NCBI GenBank assembly: GCA_044225365.1
Contig: JBGAIQ010000057.1
Location: 1 to 34,851 of the forward strand
Origin: Planctomycetota bacterium
Lineage (GTDB): Bacteria > Planctomycetota > B15-G4 > JADJEK01
DNA length: 34,851 nt
Direction: 5' to 3'
This document shows, piece by piece, positions 2,047 through 18,667 of the stretch. Numbering within the stretch: the first letter of the stretch is position 1; each line of letters starts with the position of its first letter. The notes under the pieces were generated by a model. That model did no database searches. It saw only the letters and a list, made by a program, of their open reading frames with translations, and was not told where the DNA came from. The translations under genes were made by a program, and so were the position numbers.

Positions 2047-2100
2047 GTGCGGTAGTCGAAGCGACTCGAGACAACGCAGTCGCACGGGGCTCGCGCGTCG

Positions 2101-5079
2101 TCACTTCCCGGAAGCAGAAACGTCGATCTCGGCCGTCGTTCCCGCAGCGAGCGTGATCGTGCCGGAGGCGAGGAGGGGCGGGTCGAGTTGCGCAAATTCA
2201 TATTTGCCGCTGTAGTGATCACCGAACAGCTCGTAGCGAAACGTGCCTGGGAGGACCTCGAAACTCTCCGAGCGATCTTTCCACTGGAGCCTCGTTGGGG
2301 CGAGGTCGATCCACTGATCGTGGATGCGCGAAATCTCGTCGGCTGCATCGACGGGCACGAGATGCAAGCTGGGGCGTCGGGACCATAACGAGTATTCGAG
2401 GCCGCGTAGGTGAATCGTGGCGGGCCGTGTTATCTCGAGATCGACGGTAATGATGCCGCCGTTACGTGCGTCGATCTGAACCTCACCGAGTGCGTCGGGC
2501 GCCTCGAACCGTAATCGGAGTTCGCTTGATGGAACAGACACGAGCTCGAAATCTGAGCGGCCCTCGAGCGCCATCGGCCATGGAGGTGTGATGTGTCCCA
2601 CGCCATCCGACGCGAGCGGAACGATCCATCCTTGCTTCAGGATCTCCGCGAACTCGGCCCCGTCGAAGCCGTGGGCGACGATCCGGCATTTCACCGTCGC
2701 GGGAATTGCAATTGGCAGGTCGAAGTGGAGCTTCGTGTCGCCGGGCTTGACGTCGAAGTCGAGCGATTGCGTCGACAAACCTTCTTCCGTGTCGACTTCG
2801 ATCGTCCAGGTCCCGACGCGTGCTCGGTCGATCTGAACTTGCCCTTTCCTACCGGTGGCGACGATGACCGCTTCGGAACTGATCCGTTTCGGAGTCTTGT
2901 CGTCACGGTTGCGTGGAAAGACTTGCGCGTGGCGGATGGTGTAGGGTTTACGGCTTTCTGAATCGAGCACGTCGATCGTTACGTTGGCGACGCCAATCGG
3001 CAGTCGTTCGCCAATGATACGTAGATCATGCTGATCTCCGGTGTCGCACTCGAACGTGACTCGTCCACTACGCCACAGAGAATCGCCGCCAGGCAAGTCG
3101 ACGACTAGCGTGCGGCCCCCCGCTACAGCATGTGCGTGGAAGCGGCCTTGCTCGTCGCTCGAAACTGAAAGTTGTGTACCGCTCGCGTCGAATAGACCCC
3201 GAATCGAGGCGTCAGGTATTGGCTGTCCATTCGCGTCGACGACGATTCCGCCTACAAGTTGTAGTGCGACCGATTTGCTATCGAGCGATTCCGTCGTGCC
3301 CCGCGCCGACAGGGTCACTCGTTGGCTCCGAAGTGCGGCTGCCGGGCCGTGATCGATTCGAACGGTCGTCCGCGACCGGTCGGATTCGACAACGATCAGA
3401 ACGTCCCAGTTACAAGGCAAGATGTTGAATCGAACGAGTCCTCGAGCATCCGACGTTCGTCGAAAGTCTGGGATGAGTCGAGGATCGGAAGCTGACAACT
3501 CAGTGAACTCCGAAGGAAAGTCCATGGTTGGCACCGCCGCGACCCGGACTCCCGAGATTGGTTTGCCTTGCTCGTCGAGTACCTCGATCTCGACAGGTGA
3601 GTTTGGGTAGAGACAGACGCTCGCTTTGCTGGAGTCGATTCCCGCCGAACTGGTGATTCTCGTCGCACCGCTGTCACGATCAGAGAGAGCCAGTATCATA
3701 TGCATGTCGTCGCTATTACTTCGGACATGTTCGATCGTGAATTTTCCGTTCCTGTCGGTCGCTCCAACGGGCCGTGCGGCATCGAGGATGTGCGGCCACC
3801 GCGGCTTGGAGAAATGGTCAAATAGATAGATCCGTGCACCTGCGATCGGCAGTTGCGAAATATCGTGCGCATATCCGTGAACGGTCGCCCCTCGCTCGAG
3901 CCGCACGTCTCCAAGGTCGATGCCTTCCCGAAGCGCAATCGTCCGGCCCGGAAACGCGATCTGTCGGTATAACGGCGCGTAGTCGTGACTAATAACGCGG
4001 ACCTCGGGATTCGAATCGATGATCTCGCTCAGGACGTCGAATCGGCCATCCGAGTCGGTTCGGGGGGCGGAATCCGAGAGATTCAAGTCGCTGTCCAACG
4101 TGCGAATATCGACCGTCGCGCCGGCGACCGGAGTGAGTGTCGCTCCGTCGAGCACTCGTCCGCGATAGTGGATTCGGTGATCCGGCGCGGCGGGCGGAAC
4201 CGCATCGCGAGTGGTCGGCGTCGCGGTCTCGGCGGGCGGAATGGGATCGTTCGCGAGCTGCGGCGCTTCGGCGACCCGGCCCGCGGCATCGACATCATGC
4301 GAAGGGCTGCTCAACATGAGCTTTGCCGCGACGAACCAGCCCGCGAGGAGGACGAGAACACCGGCGACGAGTTTCTTCCACATCAGCCACGATCCGATCG
4401 CGAGAGGGGTGAGCGACGCCGATGAGACGAGCCCCGGCTTCTGGATGCGGGTGAGAAGGCGACCGCGAAGGCCCTGGATCGCTCGTCGTTCGAGTCGGCT
4501 TCGAACGAAGGCGGGAAACGCCGCGAGCAGCCCGTGCGGCAGGAGGCGGCGCACGCGATCGAGGGCGCGATGAAAATGGACCCGCAAGAGGACCGGCGTG
4601 CGGCCCCCGTGAATCGAGCCCTCGTCGACGGGTCGTCGCCGCGCGTCGAGGATCTCGCGATAGGGTGAGGGCAGGTCCGCGATCGCCATCGCGACGGCCG
4701 CGCGCTCTTCGAGATCGATCAGCGCCTCGAGTTGATTCGGCTCGACGGTGACGACGGGAACACCGACGCTCGTCGCTCGCGCAGCCCGTCGCGCGGCGTT
4801 CTTCGCGTGCATCGCCAGGATGCCGACGAGCCACGGCAGAAGGGGTCGCGCAGGATCGAACACTCGAGCGCGCTCGATCGCCGTCACGTACGTGGCCTGG
4901 ATCAAGTCTTCGGCGTCGCCGCGTCCCCGCGCGATCCGCCGCGCGACGCGCATCAGCAAGGGCGCCGTGGCGTCGTAGACGGCGGCGAAAGCGGACGTAT
5001 CGCCCGTCGCCGCAAAGCGCGAGAAGAGCGCTTCGATCGCGTCGGCGGGGAGGCTCGGGAGCTTCGGAACGTCGTCCAT
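2101..5079 (-). CDS. ECF sigma factor-TM-carboxypeptidase regulatory-like repeat fusion, copy 1 (992 aa)
   Basis: Sigma2 DAEDLIQATYVTA..FDP..PWLVGI; sigma4 LPSPYRE..FHRAL; MWKK plus hydrophobic helix; repeated GRVxD..G.P..GA.V..TD..GRF units. Confidence 0.9.
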   Translation of the reverse strand: MDDVPKLPSLPADAIEALFSRFAATGDTSAFAAVYDATAPLLMRVARRIARGRGDAEDLIQATYVTAIERARVFDPARPLLPWLVGILAMHAKNAARRAARATSVGVPVVTVEPNQLEALIDLEERAAVAMAIADLPSPYREILDARRRPVDEGSIHGGRTPVLLRVHFHRALDRVRRLLPHGLLAAFPAFVRSRLERRAIQGLRGRLLTRIQKPGLVSSASLTPLAIGSWLMWKKLVAGVLVLLAGWFVAAKLMLSSPSHDVDAAGRVAEAPQLANDPIPPAETATPTTRDAVPPAAPDHRIHYRGRVLDGATLTPVAGATVDIRTLDSDLNLSDSAPRTDSDGRFDVLSEIIDSNPEVRVISHDYAPLYRQIAFPGRTIALREGIDLGDVRLERGATVHGYAHDISQLPIAGARIYLFDHFSKPRWPHILDAARPVGATDRNGKFTIEHVRSNSDDMHMILALSDRDSGATRITSSAGIDSSKASVCLYPNSPVEIEVLDEQGKPISGVRVAAVPTMDFPSEFTELSASDPRLIPDFRRTSDARGLVRFNILPCNWDVLIVVESDRSRTTVRIDHGPAAALRSQRVTLSARGTTESLDSKSVALQLVGGIVVDANGQPIPDASIRGLFDASGTQLSVSSDEQGRFHAHAVAGGRTLVVDLPGGDSLWRSGRVTFECDTGDQHDLRIIGERLPIGVANVTIDVLDSESRKPYTIRHAQVFPRNRDDKTPKRISSEAVIVATGRKGQVQIDRARVGTWTIEVDTEEGLSTQSLDFDVKPGDTKLHFDLPIAIPATVKCRIVAHGFDGAEFAEILKQGWIVPLASDGVGHITPPWPMALEGRSDFELVSVPSSELRLRFEAPDALGEVQIDARNGGIITVDLEITRPATIHLRGLEYSLWSRRPSLHLVPVDAADEISRIHDQWIDLAPTRLQWKDRSESFEVLPGTFRYELFGDHYSGKYEFAQLDPPLLASGTITLAAGTTAEIDVSASGK

Positions 5080-5087
5080 CGCGTTCC

Positions 5088-5113
5088 ATTGTCGCGAGTC
5101 CGCGTCCGGTTAC
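5088..5113 (-). promoter_or_regulatory. Conserved ECF-type promoter-like motif GTAAC-N15-GACAAT
   Basis: Minus strand reads GTAACcggacgcggactcgcGACAAT, then 8 nt to ATG 5079. Same layout upstream of three paralogs. Confidence 0.7.
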
Positions 5114-5141
5114 GGCTCTCCTCGAAATTTCCGCGCGACGA

Positions 5142-8100
5142 TCACTTCGCGGCAGGCAGCTCGAGGTCGAACGTCTCGCCCGGAACGACCGTCAACGATC
5201 CGGTCGCCACGATGGGGAGCGGGTCCGAGCCTCCGGCACTGGAGTTCAGGAACCCGCGCAGGAGCTCGTAACGCCATTCGCCGGCCGCCAGCGCAAAGGC
5301 GTGCTCCTCGGCGACTCGATCGGGAAACACGATCGATCCCCAGGAATCGAGATGGGCGTCATGGACCGAGATGAAATGGATCGACAGCCCCGCATCCGAT
5401 TTCGTGGTGCCGGCGCGCAAGTGAACGGTGCCGAAGCGAGACGCGTGGATCTCGACTTCGAGTTCTCCTCCCGCCGTGGCGTCGACGAATCCGTCACCGA
5501 TGAGTTCCGGCGAAGAAAGATGGAATCGCACAGGCCGCGGCGGAACCTGGGTGAACCGGAATTCCGTCGCCCCACGAAGATCGAATCGAGTCGGCTCGAA
5601 GTCGTTCGTCTCGCCGCCGAGACCGTCCGCATCGCTGCCACGAATCCACGCGAAACGAAGCGCTCCGGCCAGGGACTGGGCGTCGAAACCGGAACCCACG
5701 ACGCGTCCGTGGACGATAGCCGGGCGTGATACTTCGACATCGAAGACGCGCTCCTCGTCGGTGGGGGCTATCTCGAAGTCCTTCACCACGGTGGGTCGCG
5801 CGTCGCATTTCACCTCGGCGCGCCAACGCCCCGCTCGCCATCGCTCGAGCGTGATCCTTCCCTTCTCGAGTCGTGGCGGCGGTCCGAACACCTGACCCGG
5901 AATGCGAACGAGCTTAGACTCGGGCGCCGAACGGTCCTGGATCGGGTAGACCCACGCGGAAACTAGATCGAGCGGTTCCCCGCTCGCCCCATCGAAGATC
6001 CTCAGTTGGACCCGAGCGAGGCCCGCGTCGACGCGTAGTGCGATCACGCGTACGTTGGTGGAGCCGCACTTCACGTCCGATTCGAGCTGAGACTGGACCC
6101 AGTTCCAACGCTCGCCGGGGAGGTTGATGATCAGTCTTCCTTCGCCCGCTGTCGCATGGGAGATTCGGAATCGACCGCTTTCATCCGTCCGAATCGCGTC
6201 GGCATAGAGCGTACGATCAGGAAGACGCATCGCTACCGACGCAGCGGATACGGGCGCCCCACGATCGTCGACGACGATTCCTTCGACCGGCGCCGCAGGC
6301 GTTGCGACGAGCACGACGTCCCGTGCATCGCGATCGACGGGTACGTCGACCGAGGTCGGAATTCGGGCGACCCCCGGCGCGCCGACGCAGAGCTGAGTGA
6401 TATCGCCCCCAACGACGTGTTCGAGTCGGAACGCGCCATCGGGCGCACTCGTGACTTCGTCCACTTTGGGACTGAGATCGGATTGATAGAGGTCGTACCG
6501 CTCGACTCGGACTCCGCCGATGCCGCGTCCAGCGGAATCGACGACTCGGCCGCTGACAGCGAACTCGCGAAGGCGAGGCATCACGAGGCGCCGATTCGTC
6601 GACTGCGTCGCCGACAGCCGAATCGCCGACGCGGTCGCGCGCAAGTGTCCTTCGCGGCCCGCGGAGAGAGCGCATTCCATTTCCAGTGGCAGAGCGGTGA
6701 ATCGCACGCGGCCTGCGGCGTCGGTGGCCTTGCAGAACTCACTTTCCGTCTCGCACGACCAGAGCATGGTGGGTCGGTCCGTTTCGCTCCGCCAGACGAA
6801 GGGTGGTTCGAGCGGACCTGCCGAGACGAATGTGCCCTCCAGGGGCGCGCCCGAATCGTCGACGAGTTCCACCTCGAGCGTGGCGGCTCGGAAGAGTCGG
6901 ATCTCGAGTCCTTCGACGTGGGCCTTTCCTACCGGGATATTCAGATCGCAGCCGCCGCAGCCTCGCGGGGATTCGGCGAAGAGCCGGAATCGGTAGAGGC
7001 CGCCTTCGCGCACGTGCTCGATCACGAACGTGCCGTCCGATTCGGTGACGCCGACTTCCCGGGAGATCGTCGGGTAGAACGCCCACTGCATGTCTCCTTC
7101 GTCGTGGAGGAACAGACGAGCCCCTTCGACGGAGCGACCCTCGGCGTCGAGGACTCTGCCATGCAATGTCGCCCCGGAGCCGATCGAAAGGTCGCCGAGA
7201 TCGACTCCGTCGCGTCGCGCCGCGGATTCCTCGGCGACGTCGAATTCGCGGCGGGCTTCCGCATGGTCCTTGGAGCGTGCGTAGAGCGTGCCGTGTCCGT
7301 CGAAACGCGGGCGCGCGATGAGGAAGCGACCATCGGGCTGCGTCAGGACGGCGTCCTTGGGGAGCGCTGAATTCGGGAATCGATGCGTCGAATCGACGAA
7401 GACCGTCGCCGCCGCGACCGGTGCTCCGCTCGTCGCATCGATGATCCGTCCGCGGAAGAGCACCGGCGGCTCCGACGCTACTGCGCTCGGCGACGGTTCG
7501 ATGCGGTTGCGTTCGATCGCCGTCGCCTCTGCGGTCGTCGCGATCGGCTCGCTCGCGTTCTGGTCCGTGAGAGCCGGAGAGGTCCTTCGATCCCTGGCTT
7601 CCGATAGGGAATCGGGGCGATCGCCGCGAAGGACCCACGCACCGGCGACGATCAGGAGGACGCATGCGGCCATCGCCGCGATCTTCTTTCCCATCAGGAT
7701 TCCCCCGACCATGGTGACGGAAGTGGGCGCGACGATTCGTGCGCCTGGTTCGAAGCGGGTGAGCAGGATGCGGCGTACGCCATCGATCGTGTGCCGATCG
7801 TGACGCGCATCGATGAGTCGCGGGATCACGCCGAACAAGCTCTGCGGCAGGAGACGGCGAAGGAGGCGAATCGCGCGATGGAAGCCAACCCGCAGATGAA
7901 CCGGCGTGATTCCCGTTTTGCGTGGCACGCTCGTTGATGCGTCGATGCGCGCTTCCAGGATTTCGCGGTAGGGCCTCGGCAGTTCGTCGATCGCGAGGGC
8001 AACGGCCGCGCGCTCCTCCAGTTCGATGAGCGAGGCGAGCTGAGTTGCATCCGAACTGTTCGAACTGTTCGGGCCGTTCGGCGAACGCGCGAGGCCGTAC

Positions 8101-8414
8101 ACGTCGGGTGCACGCCTCGCGGCACGCGCGGCGTTCTTCGCATGACCGGCGAGGATTCCGATGAGCCACGGAAGGAGCGCGCGAGTCGGATCGAAATCGA
8201 GGGCCCGCTCGATCGCCGTCACGAAGGTCGCCTGGATCAGGTCGTCGGCGTCGTTGCGCTGCCTCGCAATGCGGCGGGCGACGGCGAGAAGCGCGGGGGC
8301 CGTGCGGTCGTACACGAGAGCGAAGGACTCGCCGTCGCCTCGCATCGCGAAGCGGATCCAGAGGGATTCGACCGAGTCGGCGACCTCGTCACGACGCCTT
8401 AGGGAAGAGGGCAT
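5142..8414 (-). CDS. ECF sigma factor-TM-carboxypeptidase regulatory-like repeat fusion, copy 2 (~1090 aa)
   Basis: Same architecture (DADDLIQATFVTAIERA; MGKK plus TM). Start reset to ATG 8414 by alignment with paralogs and the upstream motif. Confidence 0.9.
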   Translation of the reverse strand: MPSSLRRRDEVADSVESLWIRFAMRGDGESFALVYDRTAPALLAVARRIARQRNDADDLIQATFVTAIERALDFDPTRALLPWLIGILAGHAKNAARAARRAPDVYGLARSPNGPNSSNSSDATQLASLIELEERAAVALAIDELPRPYREILEARIDASTSVPRKTGITPVHLRVGFHRAIRLLRRLLPQSLFGVIPRLIDARHDRHTIDGVRRILLTRFEPGARIVAPTSVTMVGGILMGKKIAAMAACVLLIVAGAWVLRGDRPDSLSEARDRRTSPALTDQNASEPIATTAEATAIERNRIEPSPSAVASEPPVLFRGRIIDATSGAPVAAATVFVDSTHRFPNSALPKDAVLTQPDGRFLIARPRFDGHGTLYARSKDHAEARREFDVAEESAARRDGVDLGDLSIGSGATLHGRVLDAEGRSVEGARLFLHDEGDMQWAFYPTISREVGVTESDGTFVIEHVREGGLYRFRLFAESPRGCGGCDLNIPVGKAHVEGLEIRLFRAATLEVELVDDSGAPLEGTFVSAGPLEPPFVWRSETDRPTMLWSCETESEFCKATDAAGRVRFTALPLEMECALSAGREGHLRATASAIRLSATQSTNRRLVMPRLREFAVSGRVVDSAGRGIGGVRVERYDLYQSDLSPKVDEVTSAPDGAFRLEHVVGGDITQLCVGAPGVARIPTSVDVPVDRDARDVVLVATPAAPVEGIVVDDRGAPVSAASVAMRLPDRTLYADAIRTDESGRFRISHATAGEGRLIINLPGERWNWVQSQLESDVKCGSTNVRVIALRVDAGLARVQLRIFDGASGEPLDLVSAWVYPIQDRSAPESKLVRIPGQVFGPPPRLEKGRITLERWRAGRWRAEVKCDARPTVVKDFEIAPTDEERVFDVEVSRPAIVHGRVVGSGFDAQSLAGALRFAWIRGSDADGLGGETNDFEPTRFDLRGATEFRFTQVPPRPVRFHLSSPELIGDGFVDATAGGELEVEIHASRFGTVHLRAGTTKSDAGLSIHFISVHDAHLDSWGSIVFPDRVAEEHAFALAAGEWRYELLRGFLNSSAGGSDPLPIVATGSLTVVPGETFDLELPAAK

Positions 8415-8421
8415 GTGGAGT

Positions 8422-8447
8422 ATTGTCACGACACGCGGGGGTGTTAC
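8422..8447 (-). promoter_or_regulatory. Conserved promoter-like motif GTAAC-N15-GACAAT
   Basis: GTAACacccccgcgtgtcgtGACAAT, then 7 nt to ATG 8414. Confidence 0.7.
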
Positions 8448-8522
8448 CGCGTGTCGCCTTTGGAATGCGATAATTCCTGAAAGCCCTCCGGGTCCGGCGG
8501 GCACTCCATTCCCGTGAGACCG

Positions 8523-11500
8523 ATGGATCCCAACCCGCGCCCCGATCCTCGCTCGTCCGAGAGGGCGGCGTCGTTCGACGTCGAGGCGCTCCTTCGCGAG
8601 CGGGCCTGGCTCGTGGGGCTCGCTCGCTCGCTCGGGAGCGACGACGCTACGGCCGAGGATCTCGTGCAGGAGGCGCTCGTCCAGACGATCGCGCGGCCGC
8701 CGCGCGCGCTCGGATCGCCAAGGGCGTTCCTCGCCACCGTCCTGCGCCGCGTTGCACTCAAGATCGGTCGCGGGGAATCGCGACGGCGCGCACGCGAGGT
8801 CGCGAGCGCGCGGAGCGAGAGGCTGCCCGATTCGGGAACACTCGCCGCAGAAGTCGAAGCGCAGCGCGCGGTCGTCGAAGCGGTGCTCGCCCTCGATGAA
8901 CCGTATCGCCGCACGGTGATGCTCCGCTACTTCCGCGGCGTCGAGACGAAGACGATCGCGGCGGAAGAGGGCGTCGCCGCCGCGACGATCGATACGCGGC
9001 TCCACCGCGCGATCGGAAAACTGCGAGCACGCCTCGACAAGCGATTCGGCGATCGCGCGGCCTGGCGCGCGCCCCTGCTCCTCGCTGCCGCCGCGCTCGC
9101 CGTCGACAAGGCCGCCGTCGCGGGCACGATCGTGAAGAGCGCGGCAAGTGCATCGAAATGGTCGAGCCCCGCAGGGCTTGCAGGGAGTGGTGGGGTGAGT
9201 ACGTTCGGGAAGTCCCTCGTCGTCGGATTGGTTCTCGTCGTCGCGTCGGGTCTCGGCGTCCTGACGTGGCGTCGCGCTCACGACGAGAGCCGATCCACAC
9301 TCACGACCCTGGCCACCGACGATTCGACCGCGCGCTCCTTGGACCGTCGCGACGACGTCGCCGGTTCGAGCGCTCCTCGAGCGCCTTTTCCTGTCCCGGA
9401 GCGGGAGAGCGTGAAGTCGAATGACGGCGCGTCGACGCCCGCAGGGGATGCAGCGGACGGTGGCATCATCGACCTCGTCGATGCGGGCGGGAGGCCGATT
9501 TCGGGCGCGTCACTCGTGTTCCTCGATGCCCCACAAGACGCGGCCGCGATCCTGAAGACCGACGAATCGGGCCACGTCTCGTTCCCGCGCAACGCGCTCG
9601 GCTCCCGCCGACTCGTCGTGGCCGCGGCGAGTCGCGCTCCGCGAATCGTCGACTGCGTGTTGCGGCTCGGCGAGAACCGCATCGAGATCGACGGCGGCTT
9701 CGCCCTCGCCGGCCGCGTGCGTGTCAACGGGCACGAGCCACGGTCCCCGCTTCGGCTCTCGTTCGAGTACGCGGCGGGCTTTCCGGAGTTCGCTACGGAC
9801 TCGAGCGAGCTTCCTACCGGGATTGCGAACCTCCTGCAATCGTTGACGACAGAGACGGCAAGTGATGGATCGTTCGAGTTCGGGGGCCTCCCCTCCGATA
9901 CGCATGGGGAAGTGCGATTTGATCCTTGGGCTTACTACGTAAATGAGGATAGTAAACAGTCATTGGTCGTAGCGTCGCCAGCGCAAAACGTCGTGATAGA
10001 TCTCGATGAGTATCAGCGGATCAAGGGAATCGTTATCGACTCGCAGGGTCGTGGTGTCGCAGCCGCGTCTGTTGTGATTCAGGTCCTTGAGTCCGGGTTG
10101 AACGTTGTCACGATCCGACGTACTACTACCGACACAGGAGAATTCGATGCCCACCTCGGCTACCACCTCGATCGACATCGAAGGTACACAGGGCAAGTCG
10201 CAATCGAGGACCCGGAGCGCATTCGTCATCGGCAACTCGATTTCAGTATAGTCGAAGAAAGCGTTATTGATCTCGGCTCCATTGCGCTTGCGGATTCTGT
10301 TTACGTAGAATTCCAAGTGGTCGATGAAAACGGCAACCCATTATCCGGTGTGATCGGCTATCGCCGTCAGGGATTGGGTGCTCCAAGTAAGCCCACCGAC
10401 GAATCCGGTCTCGGTGGACTCACGATCGCTAAAAATACCGATGAAAGAGATCGGTGCTGGTTTGCAACGCCCGGCCGCGAGATCGTCGAATCGACACTTG
10501 CCGCCGGGCAAGTAACGCGCGTCATTATGCAGCGTGCTTCCGAGATAGAACTTTCTCTAGCGCGCAGGGACGGCGCAGATGTGGGGACTTGTTTTGCCGA
10601 GTTGGTCACGCTCGGCGAACGTCCCTTAGCAGATCCAAGCAAAGACCTGCCTCCGCCAGCACTGGAAGGGCAGTCCGAAGTGTTTCGAGGTGCCCATTGC
10701 ACACGGTGTTCGATGGAAGATGGAAATGCGTGTTTCGGATTCGAGGTCACCTCGGGGATCTCTTGGCTGCGCCGAATCCGCCCAAATGTTCGATTCGATC
10801 TTGTAATTCGAAGTACAGCAGATGTTGAGTTGTATCGAAGTCGAGATCTCATCCTTGATCCGGGAGAAACGCGCAAAGTCTTCGTTACGATCGATACCGT
10901 CGGGCGTGCGCTTTTCGTACATGTGCTGGACCCTTCAGGCAATCCTGTTTGCGATGCGGAAGTCGTTATCGAGCGAGGAATCGATGTTAGCTCGCCCAGG
11001 GGATTGACAGATACTTCCGGAACAGTCGCCTTCCTCGACGTCGCGGAGTCGATCGCAATTGTGAGCGTTCGTGCGCGCGGATATCCCGTATCGAAGAAGG
11101 CCATCGATGTCGCGACACTGAGCGGCCTGCCGCTCGAGATTCGACTGGAGGCGGGAAGAGGCGTGGAGCTCTCAATAGTAGACGTGAACGGCCGGGCGAT
11201 CGAGGACGGCGCGGCAGTGCGCGGCGGGATCGATTCTGAGGACGACCAGGAGTTCGTCGTACTCGACACACGGTCCCGCGAACTCGGCGGCGGCCGCTAC
11301 GCGTTCGATGAACTCCCGGCGACGGGGCGACTGCGGTTCGAGGTCACGCTCGGCGGAGTCGTCTATTCGCTCGTTCACGACTCACCCGCGCCGACGGCGA
11401 CGCTCGTCGTGCCCGCGCAGGGACGCGTGAGGTTGAGTTGGGACCTCGATCTGAAGACGAACTACCTGCCGTTCTACCGGTTCGTCCCGATCGGCGGCGG

Positions 11501-11705
11501 AGAGCCGATCGTGCTCGACGTCGGCTCGTTCGATCCGCGCGAAGCCCACGGCAGCGACGTGATCCCGGAGTTCCGTCCAGGGCGATATCGCGTCGAGATG
11601 AGCGTGAAGGAAGACGACGCGCCCGAGCGGCGGCTCGCGGTGTCCGTCGCAGAGATCGAGGTGATCGCGGGGAAGACCAGTGAGGTCGTCTTGGTGGCGC
11701 CCTGA
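8523..11705 (+). CDS. ECF sigma factor-TM-carboxypeptidase regulatory-like repeat fusion, copy 3 (different ECF subtype, intact sigma4)
   Basis: Sigma2 LLRERAWLVGLARSL..TAEDLVQEA; canonical sigma4 LDEPYRRTVMLRYFRG..TIAAEEGVAAATIDTRLHRA; TM SLVVGLVLVVASGLGVL; beta-sandwich repeats. Start ATG 8523 (GTG 8514 possible). Confidence 0.9.
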   Translation: MDPNPRPDPRSSERAASFDVEALLRERAWLVGLARSLGSDDATAEDLVQEALVQTIARPPRALGSPRAFLATVLRRVALKIGRGESRRRAREVASARSERLPDSGTLAAEVEAQRAVVEAVLALDEPYRRTVMLRYFRGVETKTIAAEEGVAAATIDTRLHRAIGKLRARLDKRFGDRAAWRAPLLLAAAALAVDKAAVAGTIVKSAASASKWSSPAGLAGSGGVSTFGKSLVVGLVLVVASGLGVLTWRRAHDESRSTLTTLATDDSTARSLDRRDDVAGSSAPRAPFPVPERESVKSNDGASTPAGDAADGGIIDLVDAGGRPISGASLVFLDAPQDAAAILKTDESGHVSFPRNALGSRRLVVAAASRAPRIVDCVLRLGENRIEIDGGFALAGRVRVNGHEPRSPLRLSFEYAAGFPEFATDSSELPTGIANLLQSLTTETASDGSFEFGGLPSDTHGEVRFDPWAYYVNEDSKQSLVVASPAQNVVIDLDEYQRIKGIVIDSQGRGVAAASVVIQVLESGLNVVTIRRTTTDTGEFDAHLGYHLDRHRRYTGQVAIEDPERIRHRQLDFSIVEESVIDLGSIALADSVYVEFQVVDENGNPLSGVIGYRRQGLGAPSKPTDESGLGGLTIAKNTDERDRCWFATPGREIVESTLAAGQVTRVIMQRASEIELSLARRDGADVGTCFAELVTLGERPLADPSKDLPPPALEGQSEVFRGAHCTRCSMEDGNACFGFEVTSGISWLRRIRPNVRFDLVIRSTADVELYRSRDLILDPGETRKVFVTIDTVGRALFVHVLDPSGNPVCDAEVVIERGIDVSSPRGLTDTSGTVAFLDVAESIAIVSVRARGYPVSKKAIDVATLSGLPLEIRLEAGRGVELSIVDVNGRAIEDGAAVRGGIDSEDDQEFVVLDTRSRELGGGRYAFDELPATGRLRFEVTLGGVVYSLVHDSPAPTATLVVPAQGRVRLSWDLDLKTNYLPFYRFVPIGGGEPIVLDVGSFDPREAHGSDVIPEFRPGRYRVEMSVKEDDAPERRLAVSVAEIEVIAGKTSEVVLVAP

Positions 11706-11731
11706 ACGAGGAGAGGCCTTGCGCTACGACA

Positions 11732-14700
11732 TCAACGAGGTGTCGGCAATGCGAGATCCACGGTATTTCCCGCGCGAACGACGATTCGACCGGATTGCGT
11801 GGTGTCGACGTCCGGCGAGGCGCCGCGCGACGCCCGCGTAAGAGTCCAATTCCAGATTCCGGGCGCGAGCGGAACGGCGTCGCTCGTTGACTTGCGCTCC
11901 GCCGTACCGAAGCCGATCCACTTCGCGCCGCCGCCCTCGCGCGTGAGTCGCACCTCGAGGGTGCCCGTCGGATACTGATCAGCGCCCAGCACGCGCAAGC
12001 TCCCCGGCGCCTGCGCGACGATCTCGAACACGTTCTCGCCCCCGGCGCGCACCTCGATGTCGCGTTGTCCGAGTAGCACCTCACTCTCGAAAGCGAGCAC
12101 GAGCGCGCCGAGCGGGACGCTCTCGAACGCGAATTCCGCCTTGCCGCGCAGCGGATTCCATGCGGGCTTCGCGTCGGGTTCATCGATTCCGTCGAGCCGC
12201 AGACAGCGCACGTTCCCGCTCGCGAGCGCGGCTTGCAGTGTCGCGGCATCGACGCCCTCGCCGGCGACGATCCGCCCACGGATGTTCGTGCCATGCTGCA
12301 TGACGACGCGCACTCGAACGAGCTTGTCGGTCGGCGCGACGTCGAAGTCGACGCAGGTGGAGGGATACCCGTCGCAATCGACACGCGCTCGCTTGGCGCC
12401 GGCCTGCACGGACGAGAATCGCGCAAAGCCCACTCCGCGCTCGTCGGCACTCGTCAACGATCGCGGCGAGCCCGGCAACGCGGGCCGATCACCGTAATAC
12501 GCGGCCTTCGCCTCGAGCGGAGTGTCCGTCGCGCCGTCGAGGATCTCGAGTTCGACCTTCGCCGCGGAGTCGCGAATTCGCTGTCCCACGACTCGCACCG
12601 AGGCATCGCCTCCATGGACGACGAGGTCGAGCGATCGCGCCACCCATGAATGCTCACCAGGGAGGTCGACCTGCATCGCCCACTCGCCCGCTGTCGCATT
12701 GGGAAATCGAAAGGACCCGTCGGATTCCGTGCGCGGGCGGTCCATCGCTACCCATTCGTCGGTGCGGGGGCGATGGAGGATCACGGACGCGTTCTCGACC
12801 GGCGCGCCGGAATCGTCGACGACGATTCCCGAGACCGGCGTCGCGCGCCTTGCGACGAGAACGACGCCATCGAGATCGCGATCCGCCGGCACGGTCACCT
12901 CGATCGGACGGGCCGAGATTCCCTCGGCTTCGAGGTGAAGGGCCGTCGCGACTTCGCCCTCGACTCCGTCCAAAAGGAATCGTCCTGTTGCGTCCGTCGT
13001 CGCCTCGCCTTCGTTCGCTTTCTCGAACACGCGCTGCGAGTAGCGATGAACCACGACGCCCGCGACGGGTTTGCCCTCTTCGTCCTCGACCCGGCCTCGA
13101 ATCGCGAAGAGTCGCAGCGTTCGCAGAACGGCTCTCTCATGGACAGGAGTCGTCGTCGATTCGACAGCGTCCACATACCACCGGAAGTAGCCATCCTTCG
13201 CGACCACGATCGCGTGCGGAAATCCCGCGGGCAACGCATGGAACTCCGCATGACCACGCGGGTCGGTCCGAACGCGAAACGTCGCGACGCGTTCGCGGCC
13301 GGGCGCGAGCCAGAGCGCACGCACGGGGCGATCGCCGCGCTTCAGCACTTCCTCGAGGCTCCAGTCGAACGCAACGTAGGGATCGCGAATCGGCAATGCA
13401 TCGACCGTCGCGCCTTCGACGGGCTTGCCCGTTTCGTCGACGACATCGACCTCGATCGTTCCCGGCGGGGCAAGCTGTATGTCCTCGTCGATGACGCGGC
13501 GCGCGTCCGCGAGCACGTCGAGCGACAACGCGCCGCAACCTCGGGACGAGATCGCATAGATCTGCCACTTGAAGCCGCCGCTCGGGACCACGTGCGGAAT
13601 CGAATAGGATCCGTCCGCATTCGACTCTCCAACCGGCCGAGCTTGGTCGAGGAAGAACTTCGGATACGACATGGGGTGGGCGTGGAGAAACATCTTCGCT
13701 CCCGCGACCGGAGCGCCGCTCGCGTCGGTCACGCGTCCACGAATCGTTGCGCCGCGCACGAGTTCGATATCACCGAGATTCGAGCCATCCCGGTCGATTC
13801 CCTTGCTCGGCGTATCGACCGATCGCCACCACACGGCGTAGTCGTCGCTCTCGATTCGCAACTGCATCGGAAAGTGAGCGTTCTCGATCGTGAAGCGCCC
13901 GCTCGAGTCCGAGCGGGCCGCGTCGGCGGGGATTGCGAAGGGATCGATGTCGGGCGCGCACGGAAAGCACGCGGCATTTGCGATGGGCGAACCGGTTTCG
14001 GCGTCGAGGATACGGCCGACGGCTCGCGGGCCGAGATGGAGTGCCACGGGCCGAGCGACGCCGTCGAGGGGGCTCGCGGCGATCGCGGCGCGGCTCGGTC
14101 CAGAATCGGGCGCCGTTCCGACCTCGACCTTCGGTTCGTCGAGTTGCACATTCGTCGGAGAAGTGAGCTCGGAACGGTTGCTGGTCCATGCGAAACGGAC
14201 AGCTAGGAGCAGAGCGACGACCACCCCCAAGGCGGCGAACTTCTTCAACGACGTGCCCACGACGAGGCCTCCGATCGAAACAGACGAGAGCGATGCCGCG
14301 GACTTCCCGAGCGGCGGGGCGGCGAGTCTTCCGACGACGCGCCGCCGTACGGCGGCTAGCGCGCGGCGATCGAGCGCCGACGCGAACAGGATTCCGAGGA
14401 GCGAGGGCGGCAGCAGGCGGCGAAGCCGTTGAACGGCGCGATGCAGCCGCATGCGCAACGCGCTCTCGCCGACGCCGGCGCGATCGCCGCGATCCCAGCG
14501 ATCCCAGCGATCCCAGCGATCCATGCTGGCGAGGCGCGACAGGACCTCGCGGCGATACGGGTCGGGCAGATCTCGGATCGCCCCCGCGACCGCGGCGCGA
14601 CGCTCCAAATCGACGAGACCTTCGAGCAGGTGCGGATCGCGCGCGATCTCGGGCGCGGGTCGGCCCTGCTCGCGCGCTTTGCGCCGGGCCGCGTTCTTCG

Positions 14701-14947
14701 CATGACCCGCGAGGATCCCGACGAGCCATGCCATCAACGAGCGGCTCGGGTCGAACGCGCTCGCGCGCTCGATTGCGGTCAGGAACGTCGCCTGGACGAG
14801 GTCGTCCGCATCCGCGCGCCGCTGCCCGATCCGCCGCGCCACGGCGAGCAGCGCCGGCGCCGCGCGATCGAACACCCTCGCGAACGCGGCGGCATCGCCG
14901 TGATCGCTGAATCGGGCGAAGAGCGACTCGAGACTCTCGGGTTCCAT
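11732..14947 (-). CDS. ECF sigma factor-TM-carboxypeptidase regulatory-like repeat fusion, copy 4 (1071 aa)
   Basis: DADDLVQATFLTAIERA..FDPSR; LKKF plus TM; repeated GRVxD units; closely parallels copies 1, 2 and 5. Confidence 0.9.
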   Translation of the reverse strand: MEPESLESLFARFSDHGDAAAFARVFDRAAPALLAVARRIGQRRADADDLVQATFLTAIERASAFDPSRSLMAWLVGILAGHAKNAARRKAREQGRPAPEIARDPHLLEGLVDLERRAAVAGAIRDLPDPYRREVLSRLASMDRWDRWDRWDRGDRAGVGESALRMRLHRAVQRLRRLLPPSLLGILFASALDRRALAAVRRRVVGRLAAPPLGKSAASLSSVSIGGLVVGTSLKKFAALGVVVALLLAVRFAWTSNRSELTSPTNVQLDEPKVEVGTAPDSGPSRAAIAASPLDGVARPVALHLGPRAVGRILDAETGSPIANAACFPCAPDIDPFAIPADAARSDSSGRFTIENAHFPMQLRIESDDYAVWWRSVDTPSKGIDRDGSNLGDIELVRGATIRGRVTDASGAPVAGAKMFLHAHPMSYPKFFLDQARPVGESNADGSYSIPHVVPSGGFKWQIYAISSRGCGALSLDVLADARRVIDEDIQLAPPGTIEVDVVDETGKPVEGATVDALPIRDPYVAFDWSLEEVLKRGDRPVRALWLAPGRERVATFRVRTDPRGHAEFHALPAGFPHAIVVAKDGYFRWYVDAVESTTTPVHERAVLRTLRLFAIRGRVEDEEGKPVAGVVVHRYSQRVFEKANEGEATTDATGRFLLDGVEGEVATALHLEAEGISARPIEVTVPADRDLDGVVLVARRATPVSGIVVDDSGAPVENASVILHRPRTDEWVAMDRPRTESDGSFRFPNATAGEWAMQVDLPGEHSWVARSLDLVVHGGDASVRVVGQRIRDSAAKVELEILDGATDTPLEAKAAYYGDRPALPGSPRSLTSADERGVGFARFSSVQAGAKRARVDCDGYPSTCVDFDVAPTDKLVRVRVVMQHGTNIRGRIVAGEGVDAATLQAALASGNVRCLRLDGIDEPDAKPAWNPLRGKAEFAFESVPLGALVLAFESEVLLGQRDIEVRAGGENVFEIVAQAPGSLRVLGADQYPTGTLEVRLTREGGGAKWIGFGTAERKSTSDAVPLAPGIWNWTLTRASRGASPDVDTTQSGRIVVRAGNTVDLALPTPR
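14480..14524. repeat. In-frame 9-bp tandem repeat (GCGATCCCA x3 plus two degenerate flanking units) encoding DRWDRWDRWDRGDR inside sigma4 of copy 4
   Basis: Read directly; exact units at 14489-14515. Confidence 0.9.
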
Positions 14948-14956
14948 CGAGAGTGC

Positions 14957-14982
14957 ATTGTCGCGAGTTCCCTCGGCGTCAC
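14957..14982 (-). promoter_or_regulatory. Conserved promoter-like motif GTGAC-N15-GACAAT
   Basis: GTGACgccgagggaactcgcGACAAT, then 9 nt to ATG 14947. Confidence 0.7.
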
Positions 14983-15010
14983 CGAGAAAACGCGGGGCGA
15001 TCGCGACGAT

Positions 15011-18000
15011 TCAATGCGGCGGCGCGGGCAACGCGATCTTCGACGTCTCCCCGGCGCGAACTTCGATTGTGCCCTCCGCGATCGAGGGCAATTGGAAGAG
15101 ATCGGATGGAGCCGCCGCACCAGGCTTCGCAAAGACGAGGCTCCAACGATAGGTTCCCGGCGCGAGCGTCGTGCTCGAGTCCCTCGCGTCTTGCCCGTTC
15201 GACCCGAGGAGGATCCAACCGTCGGCGGCGTCGTCGCAACTCAGGCGCACCAGGAGTCGGGACCGACCGAACGTCGCGGCGCCTTCCGTTTTCACGATTC
15301 CCGGACGGACCGCGTGGATCTCGACGACGCTCTCCTCGCCGGGCTGCGCCACGAGTCGGGTGCTGCCGATCAAGTTCTCGGCACTCATCTGCACGAAGAT
15401 CTCGCCGCTCGGGGCCTGGTCGAAGTGGAACTCCAGCGAACCGTTCAACTCGATGGATCCCGGCGCGAAGTCGCCGTTGTTGACGATCGCGGGGCGGTCC
15501 CTGCGGCCGCCCGTGATCGTCGCGTGGACCAACGCGGCGCGCAGTTCCTGGCGCGAGAGACCGGACGCCGTGATCGTTCCGCGCACGCGCGCAGCCGGCG
15601 CAACGAGGAGCTGGCATCGAACGAGCGTGTCGCTCGGCGCGACGTCGATGTCGAGGAATGCGACGGGGTGTCCCTCGCACCGCACGCGCAGGCGCCACGC
15701 TCCGGGCTTGCAATGCAGGATCCGTACGAGACCGCGCTCGCGTTCCGCATCCTCTCGACCCGTGCCGACATAGTCCTTCGAATCCGAGCGCGGACCGAAG
15801 AGGACTTCGATGGGATCGATCGGGAGACGAGAGACGGAATCGAGGAGCTCGACTTCGACCTGCGCGCGACCGGGCGTGTCGTGGACGACGACGAGCCGTA
15901 CGTTGCGGTCGCCGGCATCGACGTCGATCGCGGCGGTCTTGTCGACCCAGTCGCTGCGTGGCCCGGGAGCGCCGGCGGTCACGCTCCAACGGCCCGCCGT
16001 GACGTTCGAGATCGTGAAGTGGCCCTCGGCATCGGTGAACATCTTGTCTGCCGACAGATACGTTTCGCCGCGATGGGCCATCACTCCCGCATCCGGAATC
16101 GGTTTGCCGCTCTCGTCCACGACGACGCCCGCGATCGGGAGCGCCGCACTTGCCACGAGCACGAGATCGCAGAGATCATGGTCGTCCGGAACTCTCACGT
16201 GCAACGGCTGACGCGCGATGCCGGGTGCGCCGACGCAGAGATCCATCTCCTCCGCCGCTTTCATCGGGTCGAATCGAAATCGCCCCAATGCATCGCACGT
16301 CATCTCGTCGATCTTCGGTGACACGTCGCATTGATAGGTGCCGTAGCGCTCGATCATTGCACCGGGGAGCGGTCTACCGTCCGTATCAACGACCTTCCCG
16401 CCGATCGCGAACCTGTTCGCGGGAAGCAGTGTTGCCCGCAGTCGGGTCGGCTTGCCCGCTGAGAGTCGAACGACGTCCGCGAACCACGGAATGAAGTCGG
16501 TCTTGGAGGCATGCACCGCGCAGGGGAGGTCGGAGGGCAGCGCGAGGATCGTCGCATGGCCCGCGGCATCCGTCACTGCGCGCAACGGTGCGGGCAGATG
16601 CGGATCATTGGCGAGATGGAGGATGCGGGCTTCTTTCGAGTGATCGCCTGGAAACGCGGCGATCGCGAGATTGCCATAGACGAACGGCTCGACGATCGGC
16701 GCGGCGCCGATGGTGACGCCCTCGACCGGCTTGCCTACAGGATCGACGACCTCGATCTCGATCGGGCCCGACGGTGCGAGCCGCAATTCGACATCGAGCG
16801 GGTGCTCCGATCCGGGGACGACGTGGAGCAGTGCCGCAGCCGATCCTTGATTCGTGATCGCGAAGAGCCGCGAAGGGAACGCCCCGCTCGGCGGAACCTG
16901 CGCGAGTTCGAACGTGCCATCCGAAGCGGAGCGCCCGACGGAACGTGCGCGGCTTGGGAAGAACGACGACGTGTAGAGCGGTCCGTCGTAGACCAGGAGT
17001 GGAGCGTCGGGGAAGGGCTGACCCTTTTGATCGACGACGCGTCCGCGGACTGCGCCGCCACGAGGCAGACGCAGGTCGCCGACGTCGACGCCCTCGTGTC
17101 GCGCAATCGTGTCGCCGGGCCAGTCGATCCGCTGCGCGAGCGGGGCGTAATCGGCGGAGACGATGCAGGTGAAGTCGATGAGTCGGGGAACGTTCGAGAT
17201 CGTGAACCTGCCGTCCGAATCCGTTCTCACGCAGTTCGGAGGTAGCTCGAACGATCGAGGAGCGCTGCTCGAGACGAAGCACGCGGCGTTCGCGACCGGT
17301 GAGCCCGTCGCCGAATCGATCACCCGACCGCGAACCGTGAACCCCTGCGCATCGCCGATTGGAGGAAGCGCTGCATCCGTATGGGTCGCGGCCGTGATAT
17401 CGCGCGTCGAGGTAGTCGGTTCGTTCGTGGCTTCGCTCTGGGCTTCGTTCTGGGCGGGCGTCGCGATCACGGGGGCGATCGACGGGACATCGTCCCGCGA
17501 TTCCGAAGTCGCGACCTGTCGCGTGGCGATCGCAATCCAAGTCGCTGCGATCACGACGAGCACGACCGCAGCGGCGAACTTCTTCATCATGATGCCGGCT
17601 CCCAATCCTGTCGCCCCGAACGTGGCCGCGATTCCCTTCGAACCCAACGCCCGTTCGAGCACGCGAACTCGAATCTCTGCGAGGGAACGATCTCCGCGGA
17701 GCAGGATCCCTCCCGCGAACGACTCACGGGGGAGCAACTTCCGCAGGAGCGCGATCCCCCGATGGATCCGCGTGCGAAGCGTTCCCGCGTGCGCTTCGGC
17801 TTCATGATCCTTTGCGTTCCAGCGCGTCGCGACCGCGCTGCGGAACGGCTCGGGAAGCGCGTCGATGGCAGCGAGGACGGCGGTGCGTTCTTCGGCCCCG
17901 ATCATGGCTTCGAGCGGCGGGGGATCGTGAGCGATGGCGTCGTCTCGATCCGCGATCGGGGCGTTCGTGCGCCGCGCCTGGTTCTTCGCGTGATGGGCGA

Positions 18001-18235
18001 GGATGCCGATGAGCCAGGGCATGAGACGCATCTTCGAGTCGAATGTCGTCGCGCGCTCGATCGCCGTCACGAAAGTGGCCTGGACGAGGTCGTCGGCGTC
18101 GCCGCGAATTCTCGAGAGTCGCCATGCCACCGCGCGCAGCGGCGGGGCCGCGCGATCGAAGAGAGTCGCGAACGCGCCCGCGTCACCGTGATCGCGGTAA
18201 GCGACAAAGAGTGACTCGAGTGTTCGTTCGTCCAT
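15011..18235 (-). CDS. ECF sigma factor-TM-carboxypeptidase regulatory-like repeat fusion, copy 5 (~1074 aa)
   Basis: Start reset to MDERTLESLF (ATG 18235), which aligns with MEPESLESLF of copy 4. DADDLVQATFVTAIERA; MMKK plus TM. Confidence 0.9.
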   Translation of the reverse strand: MDERTLESLFVAYRDHGDAGAFATLFDRAAPPLRAVAWRLSRIRGDADDLVQATFVTAIERATTFDSKMRLMPWLIGILAHHAKNQARRTNAPIADRDDAIAHDPPPLEAMIGAEERTAVLAAIDALPEPFRSAVATRWNAKDHEAEAHAGTLRTRIHRGIALLRKLLPRESFAGGILLRGDRSLAEIRVRVLERALGSKGIAATFGATGLGAGIMMKKFAAAVVLVVIAATWIAIATRQVATSESRDDVPSIAPVIATPAQNEAQSEATNEPTTSTRDITAATHTDAALPPIGDAQGFTVRGRVIDSATGSPVANAACFVSSSAPRSFELPPNCVRTDSDGRFTISNVPRLIDFTCIVSADYAPLAQRIDWPGDTIARHEGVDVGDLRLPRGGAVRGRVVDQKGQPFPDAPLLVYDGPLYTSSFFPSRARSVGRSASDGTFELAQVPPSGAFPSRLFAITNQGSAAALLHVVPGSEHPLDVELRLAPSGPIEIEVVDPVGKPVEGVTIGAAPIVEPFVYGNLAIAAFPGDHSKEARILHLANDPHLPAPLRAVTDAAGHATILALPSDLPCAVHASKTDFIPWFADVVRLSAGKPTRLRATLLPANRFAIGGKVVDTDGRPLPGAMIERYGTYQCDVSPKIDEMTCDALGRFRFDPMKAAEEMDLCVGAPGIARQPLHVRVPDDHDLCDLVLVASAALPIAGVVVDESGKPIPDAGVMAHRGETYLSADKMFTDAEGHFTISNVTAGRWSVTAGAPGPRSDWVDKTAAIDVDAGDRNVRLVVVHDTPGRAQVEVELLDSVSRLPIDPIEVLFGPRSDSKDYVGTGREDAERERGLVRILHCKPGAWRLRVRCEGHPVAFLDIDVAPSDTLVRCQLLVAPAARVRGTITASGLSRQELRAALVHATITGGRRDRPAIVNNGDFAPGSIELNGSLEFHFDQAPSGEIFVQMSAENLIGSTRLVAQPGEESVVEIHAVRPGIVKTEGAATFGRSRLLVRLSCDDAADGWILLGSNGQDARDSSTTLAPGTYRWSLVFAKPGAAAPSDLFQLPSIAEGTIEVRAGETSKIALPAPPH

Positions 18236-18243
18236 CGCGAGGT

Positions 18244-18269
18244 ATTGTCGCGAATGCTCGGAGCGTTCC
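18244..18269 (-). promoter_or_regulatory. Conserved promoter-like motif GGAAC-N15-GACAAT
   Basis: GGAACgctccgagcattcgcGACAAT, then 8 nt to ATG 18235. Confidence 0.7.
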
Positions 18270-18290
18270 CACGATTCGAAGAAGATCGTC

Positions 18291-18455
18291 GCGGGCGGCG
18301 GCAGCTCGATGTCGGTGATCTCGCCCGCTTTCAAGTCCACGGCTCCGCAGCAGGCGACGGGCAGCCATCGCCAAGGGGTAGGGGCGTCGGTCTCAAAGGT
18401 GAAGCGGCCGGCGTAGCATTGAGATCGCATCAGTCCAAGTCGGACGTCGAGACGA
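18291..18455 (-). pseudogene. Remnant C-terminus of a sixth ECF-fusion paralog
   Basis: LDVRL..AGRFTFE..GAVDLKAGEITDIELPPPA resembles the paralog ends (GTIEVRAGETSKIALPAPPH; GSLTVVPGETFDLELPAAK) and sits at the usual ~55-63 nt tandem spacing. Confidence 0.55.
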
Positions 18456-18667
18456 GAATTCGCCCGCGCGCTTCCCGAAGGGCCGCATCCTCTTGGACTC
18501 CAGGCCCTGTGGGCGTTACGATTCCTGCGCTGAGTGGCGCCATTGAATCGAGGGATCGTCCTCTCTCGGTCTACGATCGGCCGTATCCGCTGCGAGTGCG
18601 CGAGCGCTCGTGGGGGCGGTTGCTCGAGAGGGGATGAGGACGATCGCACGTCGGAAGAGGATTCATC

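Follow-up and report, generated by a model that had tools for sequence, protein, structure and literature searches.

A probable internal translation start before the transmembrane helix of tethered ECF sigma factors in Planctomycetota

Introduction

Some bacterial genes encode two proteins in a single reading frame; ClpB, IF2 and CheA occur in long and short forms that arise through internal starts. In Escherichia coli, in-frame internal starts have been mapped by retapamulin ribosome profiling, as set out in the available part of that report (bioRxiv 10.1101/520783). The present work concerns candidate sites of this kind in five genes, named here c1 to c5, which occupy positions 2101-18235 of a 34,851-nucleotide stretch of DNA (contig JBGAIQ010000057.1 of assembly GCA_044225365.1, our contig C47), referred to below as the window, from the metagenome-assembled genome (6.53 Mb, 65% GC) of an uncultured planctomycete. 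Each gene is a long fusion of an extracytoplasmic function (ECF) sigma factor, a transmembrane (TM) helix and CarboxypepD_reg repeats. Judging from comparisons among their homologues, we consider it likely that each of the five holds a working internal translation initiation site ahead of the TM helix and yields two proteins.

As in the E. coli cases, a Shine-Dalgarno (SD) sequence and an in-frame start lie inside a longer open reading frame (ORF), and the second product would share the C-terminal part of the first. Unlike those cases, the site described here stands at the sigma/TM junction of tethered ECF factors, is conserved over dozens of paralogues per genome and across the phylum, and is known from sequence. 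Closest in logic is gene I of the filamentous phages, whose product pXI starts just before a TM segment. The two products of this gene, G1p (pI) and G11p (pXI), come from an internal in-frame start, according to the available text of PMC9228878. There, too, the short form is a membrane protein that consists of the TM segment and the outer part, the cytoplasmic N-terminal domain being absent. The two phage forms work together in one assembly, as the two forms proposed here might; the phage pair is an assembly ATPase, whereas the genes in the window encode transcription factors.

Among sigma factors, the nearest described architectures are the sigma/anti-sigma hybrids, represented by IutY of Pseudomonas putida (ECF243) and by ECF48, ECF52 and ECF53 proteins such as SCO4117. 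The available text of PMC8999054 describes their extensions as anti-sigma-like, with a zinc-finger domain in ECF48/52/53, and the activation of IutY by regulated proteolysis through Prc and RseP; the same text makes no mention of an internal start in IutY or in ECF48/52/53. Like the IutY/ECF52 hybrids, the genes in the window join an N-terminal ECF sigma domain via a TM segment to an extracytoplasmic part; unlike them, c1 to c5 have no recognisable anti-sigma domain, and they therefore fall outside the hybrid class in the strict sense. In Planctomycetota, chance insertion has been proposed to give duplicated ECF sigma factors C-terminal extensions of unrelated origin (Pinto and da Fonseca 2020, PMC7671368, available part). 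The window shares its phylum and its theme, many paralogous ECFs with long, fast-evolving C-terminal extensions, with that study and with Casas-Pastor et al. 2021 (PMC7826278). In the available text of both, the extension is handled as part of one protein, and a second product or an internal ribosome-binding site (RBS) in planctomycetal ECFs is not mentioned; more generally, ECFs with fused extensions are treated as single polypeptides in the parts of the literature at hand (PMC7826278, PMC8999054). Full-text searches of the literature returned no description of a sigma-TM fusion with an internal start, and an apparent match for such a start (PMC9546586) concerns mCherry. In-frame internal starts are already known in bacteria; it is their place at the sigma-TM junction for which no published report was found.

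Candidate internal starts in the five genes

The sequence-only reading of the window had pointed out a purine run followed by an in-frame ATG or GTG before the hydrophobic helix of each copy, and these elements are present in 5/5 genes (Table 1), 3-7 codons ahead of the best 19-residue hydrophobic window. The n-region and h-region of a Sec-type signal, also proposed in that reading, were recognised by eye in 5/5 genes as M or V, one to five residues and K-K (K-S in c3), followed by about 14-19 uncharged residues; this charged-then-hydrophobic beginning of the short product recurs in homologues.

The tail of the 16S rRNA of this genome (...CACCUCCUUUCU) holds the CCUCC anti-SD. Duplexes with this tail range from -7.3 to -10.9 kcal/mol at the five internal sites (Table 1), while the main starts of c1 to c5 pair at -3.3, -3.8, -4.0, -0.3 and -0.3 kcal/mol, respectively. 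The internal sites pair better with the anti-SD than the main starts do; the sequence-only reading had the impression that the main starts lack a clear SD, and all five pair weakly. For comparison, 1181 random internal start-type codons have a median duplex energy of -4.4 kcal/mol, with 17.6% at -7 or lower, and 903 well-determined real starts of the genome a median of -5.7 kcal/mol. A core SD tetramer lies 3-11 nucleotides (nt) upstream of 31% of these 903 starts versus 8% of internal ATG, GTG and TTG codons; at the main starts of the homologous genes it was found in 16 of 73.

The geometry of the sites is that of initiation regions in this genome, where SD spacing at real starts peaks at 6-8 nt. 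At 40 internal sites of homologues, the 3' end of GGAG lies 8 nt from the start in 28, the start-anchored consensus is GGAGG at -12 to -8, and the start codon is ATG in 21, GTG in 18 and TTG in one. Compared with other windows in these genes, the 30 nt on either side of the site also form less stable structure (mean z +1.03, n=40, P 1.3e-6).

Selection on the site among homologues

Three sets of fusion genes were compared. The first comprised 78 c1-type genes, reduced to 74 once near-identical junctions had been removed; its sources included loci L049-L208 (160 loci from two contig collections), from which we retained only the 29 whose TM score exceeded 1.5 and whose ORF either had more than 380 aa or continued past the end of the locus. 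The second, a later phylum-wide set, was picked by sigma-domain similarity alone from other families of the phylum, and its 41 loci became 38 when two duplicates of earlier loci were dropped together with one that lacked a TM helix or sufficient length. The third consisted of the 21 c3-type paralogues of c3 in the same genome. In each sequence we took codons -16 to +3 relative to the TM window and looked for an in-frame ATG, GTG or TTG preceded at 4-10 nt by GGAG, GAGG or AGGA; the counts were compared with a null model in which the amino acids were fixed and the codons redrawn from each gene's own usage (200,000 simulations for the 74-gene set).

The combination of SD core and start occurs in 40/74 non-redundant homologues against 7.97 expected, with a simulation maximum of 20; in 15/38 members of the phylum-wide set against 2.85; and in 14/21 c3-type paralogues against 4.05. 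It thus exceeds the synonymous-resampling expectation about 5-fold across three separate sets. The excess is also local: start-type codons preceded by an SD core number 46/99 at -12 to +2 codons of the TM helix and 237/2978 elsewhere in the ORFs (Fisher P 3.5e-23). When the three sets are pooled (135 sequences, two duplicates included), 87 carry an SD core near the TM helix, and in 72 of these an in-frame start-type codon follows 4-10 nt downstream.

Codon choice at the junction points the same way. Genome-wide, GGC is the usual Gly codon, as had been supposed (52.8%, against 16.8% for GGA and 16.2% for GGG), and a Gly that precedes another Gly is written GGC in 71.6% and GGA in 9.1% of cases. 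A codon-blind pattern (G, 2-7 residues, K or R, hydrophobic stretch) picks out a Gly in 53 of the 74 genes, and here the codons are GGA 32, GGC 11, GGG 6 and GGT 4, compared with an own-gene GGA share of 16% (P 5e-13). In the alignment, the two junction columns that write the SD have GGA in 34/55 and 24/56 sequences, while eight other conserved Gly columns have it in 2-9 of 35-70 sequences (4-16%). The residue after the motif Gly varies (G 28, A 8, L 6, S 5, V 4), although its codon begins with G in 40/53, and some members write the SD in other registers and with other residues (GGG AGY, TCG GAG, GAA GGA GCG). Where Val stands four codons after the motif Gly it is GTG in nine genes and GTC in two; at flanking positions (offsets -4 to -1 and +3), GTG makes up 4/37 Val codons. 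Among the 87 sequences with an SD core, 43 have no Met at the eligible codons, and 28 of these use GTG or TTG where 13.2 would be expected. Free use of GGC and of non-start codons in homologues, which the sequence-only reading had named as the pattern that would speak against an internal start, is therefore not what is found.

Taken together, these comparisons indicate that the SD and the start codon are under nucleotide-level selection exactly at the sigma/TM junction. They lend support, on comparative grounds, to the suggestion that each gene may also make a sigma-less isoform, and most relatives across Planctomycetota probably carry the same internal initiation region.

A number of points weigh against this reading. 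The canonical GGAG/GAGG core is present in c3, c4 and c5 only, and c1 (GGA) and c2 (GGGGGA) fail the strict core test, as do 34 of the 74 homologues for the full SD-plus-start pattern; 15 of the 87 sequences with an SD core have no start-type codon at the right distance. The site is 6.2 GC points lower than other windows, and both its low structure and its low GC content could derive from Lys and TM codons. Homologues share kinship, so the P values overstate independence, and the site was picked post hoc by the earlier reading, although the result was repeated in the later set. Elongation from the main start could also keep the internal site covered by ribosomes. Finally, a lineage represented by genome G135 carries fusions of the same sigma subfamily (14 matches) in which no internal SD and start were found, at 0/12 non-redundant fusion loci; a fusion can evidently exist without the site, so the short product is not required by the architecture. 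At the G135 loci (L217, L227, L232-L243) the junction reads ...L-G-K-L..., written CTG GGC AAG, and the ectodomain is of another, highly repeated family that matches the G135 genome 159 times, often in ORFs too short to hold a sigma domain.

Alternative explanations

Four other accounts of the junction were weighed. The sequence-only reading had itself allowed that the site might be a fossil: the RBS and start of a recipient gene for an exported protein would have survived, unused, after a sigma module was inserted in front of it. The insertion model for planctomycetal sigma extensions (Pinto and da Fonseca 2020, PMC7671368, available part) accords with such an origin, as do the ectodomains of many paralogues, which have no detectable mutual similarity, and stand-alone, signal-anchored ORFs of CarboxypepD_reg type on contigs C7 and C75 of the same genome. 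These two sigma-less ORFs (C7 39848-41893 and C75 59308-60555, both on the minus strand) begin with M-x-K and a hydrophobic anchor and carry weakly similar beta-sandwich repeats; they came up when the C-terminal parts were searched against the genome, look like free-standing counterparts of the proposed short isoforms, and hint that such ectodomain proteins can stand alone. Yet the site is kept in 11/14 members of one ectodomain-homology cluster (identity 29-85%) and in 6/8 of another (25-35%), the latter including c1, c2, c4 and c5, and homologous ectodomains imply that the fusions are older than the divergence of the genes. Over that divergence 4-fold sites have come close to saturation, same-codon identity at identical residues being 1.15-1.18 times the codon-usage expectation, and a rare codon such as GGA, if it served no purpose, would have given way to GGC by drift, as it has in the control Gly columns. 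Nor did any close homologue of the short form turn up as a split or stand-alone gene: there was none in 35 matches of 472-1504 aa, and the nearest match beyond the window's own gene is itself fused (P0002, 42% identity, 1084 aa, PF04542). The weaker matches (E 7.7e-27 and above) are for the most part generic proteins with CarboxypepD_reg repeats, and a few of them also carry PF04542. A pure fossil is accordingly disfavoured, and we regard it as unlikely; a fusion origin may well be the source of the site, which nonetheless appears to have been kept by selection.

Internal SD-like sequences have been proposed to cause pauses tied to membrane-protein targeting, and a GGAGG that is conserved as RNA and immediately precedes a TM helix could act in this way, holding elongating ribosomes through the anti-SD and timing sigma folding or TM targeting with no productive initiation. 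Such a pause needs no start codon, yet one follows in frame in 72/87 sequences, GTG and TTG are over-used in sequences without Met while flanking Val codons seldom are GTG, and the spacing equals that of the genome's real starts. The TM helix, moreover, would not yet have been synthesised when the ribosome is at the site, so that a pause there should give no aid to its recognition. We judge a pause to be about as improbable as a relic. A purely protein-level motif, G-G-x-x-M/V-x-K-K, serving as a hinge, protease site or helix cap and resembling a start site by coincidence, draws on the Gly G226 that is invariant in a 17-sequence alignment and on the K-K before the TM helix, which the positive-inside rule leads one to expect. 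It is largely refuted by the codon-level tests, which are conditioned on the amino acids and still give a 5-fold excess: GGA rises about 4-fold above expectation in the junction columns alone, the second residue varies while the first base of its codon stays G, and the SD also appears in other registers with other residues. Residues 214-233 of c4, where the motif lies, are moreover predicted to be disordered (pLDDT below 50). On these grounds the motif account seems very unlikely. Least credible of all, and rejected here, is a programmed frameshift of the dnaX/prfB type, in which the internal SD would stimulate slippage and an early stop would free a soluble sigma factor. The +1 frame does meet a stop after a median of 2 codons past the site, versus 42 in the background, but RTG-A overlaps (A follows the start in 16/40) and TM codons with T in second place probably account for most of these near stops. 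The -1 frame remains without a stop over a median of 124 codons, inspection of the site sequences by eye showed no slippery heptamer of the form X XXY YYZ, and a frameshift leaves the conserved in-frame start codon unexplained.

Gene architecture, main starts and family

Each of the five genes has Sigma70_r2 at the N-terminus, followed by several CarboxypepD_reg beta-sandwich repeats (Pfam), and one strongly hydrophobic 19-residue window about 220-245 residues from the N-terminus (hydropathy). PF04542 exceeds its cut-off in 5/5 genes (E 3e-8 to 2e-13). For region 4, PF08281 passes in c3 only, and no Pfam region-4 family was matched in c1, c2, c4 and c5; Sigma70_r1 and Sigma70_r3 families gave no hit at E <= 0.01 in c1 to c5, and no Pfam family for an anti-sigma domain of ASD, ZAS or FecR type was found between sigma4 and the TM helix in any of them. 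An AlphaFold2 model of c4 residues 1-320 (mean pLDDT 73) places sigma2 at 1-93, a helical domain at the expected position of sigma4 (105-178, a region that aligns with c3), a linker helix at 181-209 and the TM helix at 229-258. The gap between sigma4 and the TM helix in this model is about 50 residues and contains the single helix 181-209. A tandem peptide repeat, MDRWDRWDRWDRGDR, occurs in c4 at 14480-14524 on the minus strand (residues ~141-155); in the alignment it is inserted between the sigma2-sigma4 linker and the sigma4 helices, and it is absent from c1, c2 and c5.

The main starts of c2 and c5 were placed at ATG 8414 and ATG 18235 by alignment with paralogues, the longest ORFs overshooting them. 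The public gene call for c5 (P0001, 1139 aa) begins about 65 codons upstream of ATG 18235 (18236-18430, minus strand), and automatic annotation probably over-extends this gene. Directly before the main starts of c1, c2, c4 and c5 stands a short box (Table 1) that looks like the -10-like element of an ECF-type promoter abutting the start, in which case the mRNA would be leaderless or nearly so. Many homologues have a related box (CGACAAT, CGTCAAT or CGACAAG) 8-12 nt ahead of their main start, and a G[TG][AG]AC element often precedes it by about 14 nt. The combined pattern G[TG][AG]AC-N13-16-CGACAAT was tried as a regulon motif and set aside as too unspecific, since only 3 of its 15 genome-wide matches belong to genes of the window. 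A scan of positions 2000-19000 for internal promoters of the sigma-70 type gave three sites (1.9 expected), all on the plus strand and none upstream of an internal start.

Fusion genes of this ECF / TM / long-ectodomain kind, 550-1230 aa in length, number about 35 in the genome and belong to two sigma subfamilies: 13 are c1-type (four in the window and nine elsewhere) and 22 are c3-type (c3 and its 21 paralogues). They are found on contigs C2, C23, C28, C29, C31, C33, C34, C35, C50, C53, C54, C59, C63, C76, C78, C82, C92, C98 and C99, and several sit in tandem clusters resembling that of the window. Homologues occur in 11/11 other genomes of the same family and in 18/151 genomes sampled across the phylum, the present genome (G000) included. 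Two loci were considered as split-gene relatives and rejected. L016 (G012:C73:1-3807) is a frameshifted homologue broken into three frames, with no clean split, that may be a pseudogene or an assembly error and keeps GGLLMTKK before its TM helix; L017 is an ordinary short ECF. In the window, FG-GAP repeat proteins flank the cluster on both sides, at 421-2046 (+; PF14312, E 5.8e-39) and 18668-21220 (+; PF13517, E 1.2e-98), and the latter gene overlaps the spurious upstream extension of the c5 ORF.

Table 1. Coordinates of the fusion genes, putative short isoforms, TM helices and upstream boxes in the window. Duplex energies refer to pairing with the 16S rRNA tail of the same genome.
Feature	Position	Strand	Details
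c1 full-length fusion gene, 992 aa	2101..5079	-	Sigma70_r2 E 1.7e-10; CarboxypepD_reg E 8.5e-23 (Pfam)
c2 full-length fusion gene, 1090 aa	5142..8414	-	Sigma70_r2 E 6.6e-11; CarboxypepD_reg E 1.4e-32
c3 full-length fusion gene, 1060 aa, different ECF subfamily	8523..11705	+	Sigma70_r2 E 3e-8; Sigma70_r4_2 E 8.9e-8; CarboxypepD_reg E 2.9e-19
c4 full-length fusion gene, 1071 aa	11732..14947	-	Sigma70_r2 E 2e-13; CarboxypepD_reg E 1.9e-39
c5 full-length fusion gene, 1074 aa	15011..18235	-	Sigma70_r2 E 1.5e-9; CarboxypepD_reg E 8e-43
c1 putative short isoform, 760 aa	2101..4383	-	ATG 4383 (MWKKLVA); weak SD GGA 4393-4395, 9 nt spacer; duplex -7.3 kcal/mol
c2 putative short isoform, 850 aa	5142..7694	-	ATG 7694 (MGKKIAA); GGGGGA 7701-7706, 6 nt spacer; duplex -8.8 kcal/mol
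c3 SD and putative short isoform, 836 aa	9183..11705	+	GGGAG 9183-9187, 7 nt spacer, GTG 9195; duplex -10.6 kcal/mol
c4 SD and putative short isoform, 842 aa	11732..14272	-	GGAGG 14268-14272, 7 nt spacer, GTG 14260; duplex -10.9 kcal/mol
c5 SD and putative short isoform, 859 aa	15011..17603	-	GGGAG 17599-17603, 8 nt spacer, ATG 17590 (MMKKFAA); duplex -7.8 kcal/mol
c1 TM helix	4315..4371	-	best 19-residue hydropathy window
c2 TM helix	7629..7685	-	best 19-residue hydropathy window
c3 TM helix	9213..9269	+	best 19-residue hydropathy window
c4 TM helix	14183..14239	-	best 19-residue hydropathy window; AlphaFold2 model
c5 TM helix	17522..17578	-	best 19-residue hydropathy window
CGCGACAAT box, c1	5088..5096	-	ends 8 nt before main ATG
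CGTGACAAT box, c2	8422..8430	-	ends 7 nt before main ATG
CGCGACAAT box, c4	14957..14965	-	ends 8-9 nt before main ATG
CGCGACAAT box, c5	18244..18252	-	ends 8-9 nt before main ATG

Discussion

The reading we favour is that these genes are translated from two starts. The internal initiation region would consist of an in-frame ATG or GTG and, about 7-8 nt ahead of it, an SD with the consensus GGAGG, for which a Gly codon GGA and a following codon with G in first place usually provide the letters. It would fall within the linker, modelled with low confidence, that joins the sigma domain to the Lys-Lys and TM helix. The first product would be the full fusion of sigma domain, TM helix and beta-sandwich ectodomain, translated from the main start; this start has poor pairing with the anti-SD, and its leader, given the -10-like box directly upstream, may be very short or absent. 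Ribosomes initiating at the internal site would make the second, a sigma-less protein of 760-859 aa that begins with M/V-x-K-K, continues into the TM helix and is predicted to share the N-in topology and the ectodomain of the full-length form. As the main start is weak, the short product would probably be the more abundant of the two.

The sequence-only reading had suggested that the short form might act as a decoy, an intragenic anti-sigma factor or a co-receptor. For its role, we favour a tuning of the release of the tethered sigma factor, which could operate through co-assembly with the full-length form or through competition for ligand or for the site-1 protease; the full-length form would itself presumably be released by regulated proteolysis, as for IutY. 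Next in likelihood, the short form would be the envelope protein proper, the sigma-bearing form would act as its sensor, and the sigma part would control its supply. A broader proposal is more speculative, and we put it forward as a tentative possibility rather than an expectation: a phylum-wide one-gene-two-proteins design, in which an SD-led internal start supplies an excess of sigma-less sensor and a weak, possibly leaderless start supplies the sigma form. The free sensor could then serve as an intragenic anti-sigma factor or as a buffer, whether through shielding, through co-assembly or by competing for ligand or protease, and the ratio of the two starts might set the threshold of dozens of paralogous pathways.

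If most planctomycetal genes of this sigma / TM / sensor type do make a sigma-less sensor as well, current models would have to change in their account of how these one-component sigma systems are kept inactive and then set free, annotation should record two products for each gene, and a knock-out or tag would affect two proteins at once. The family as a whole would then be a selection-backed addition to the few bacterial genes with functional in-frame internal starts.

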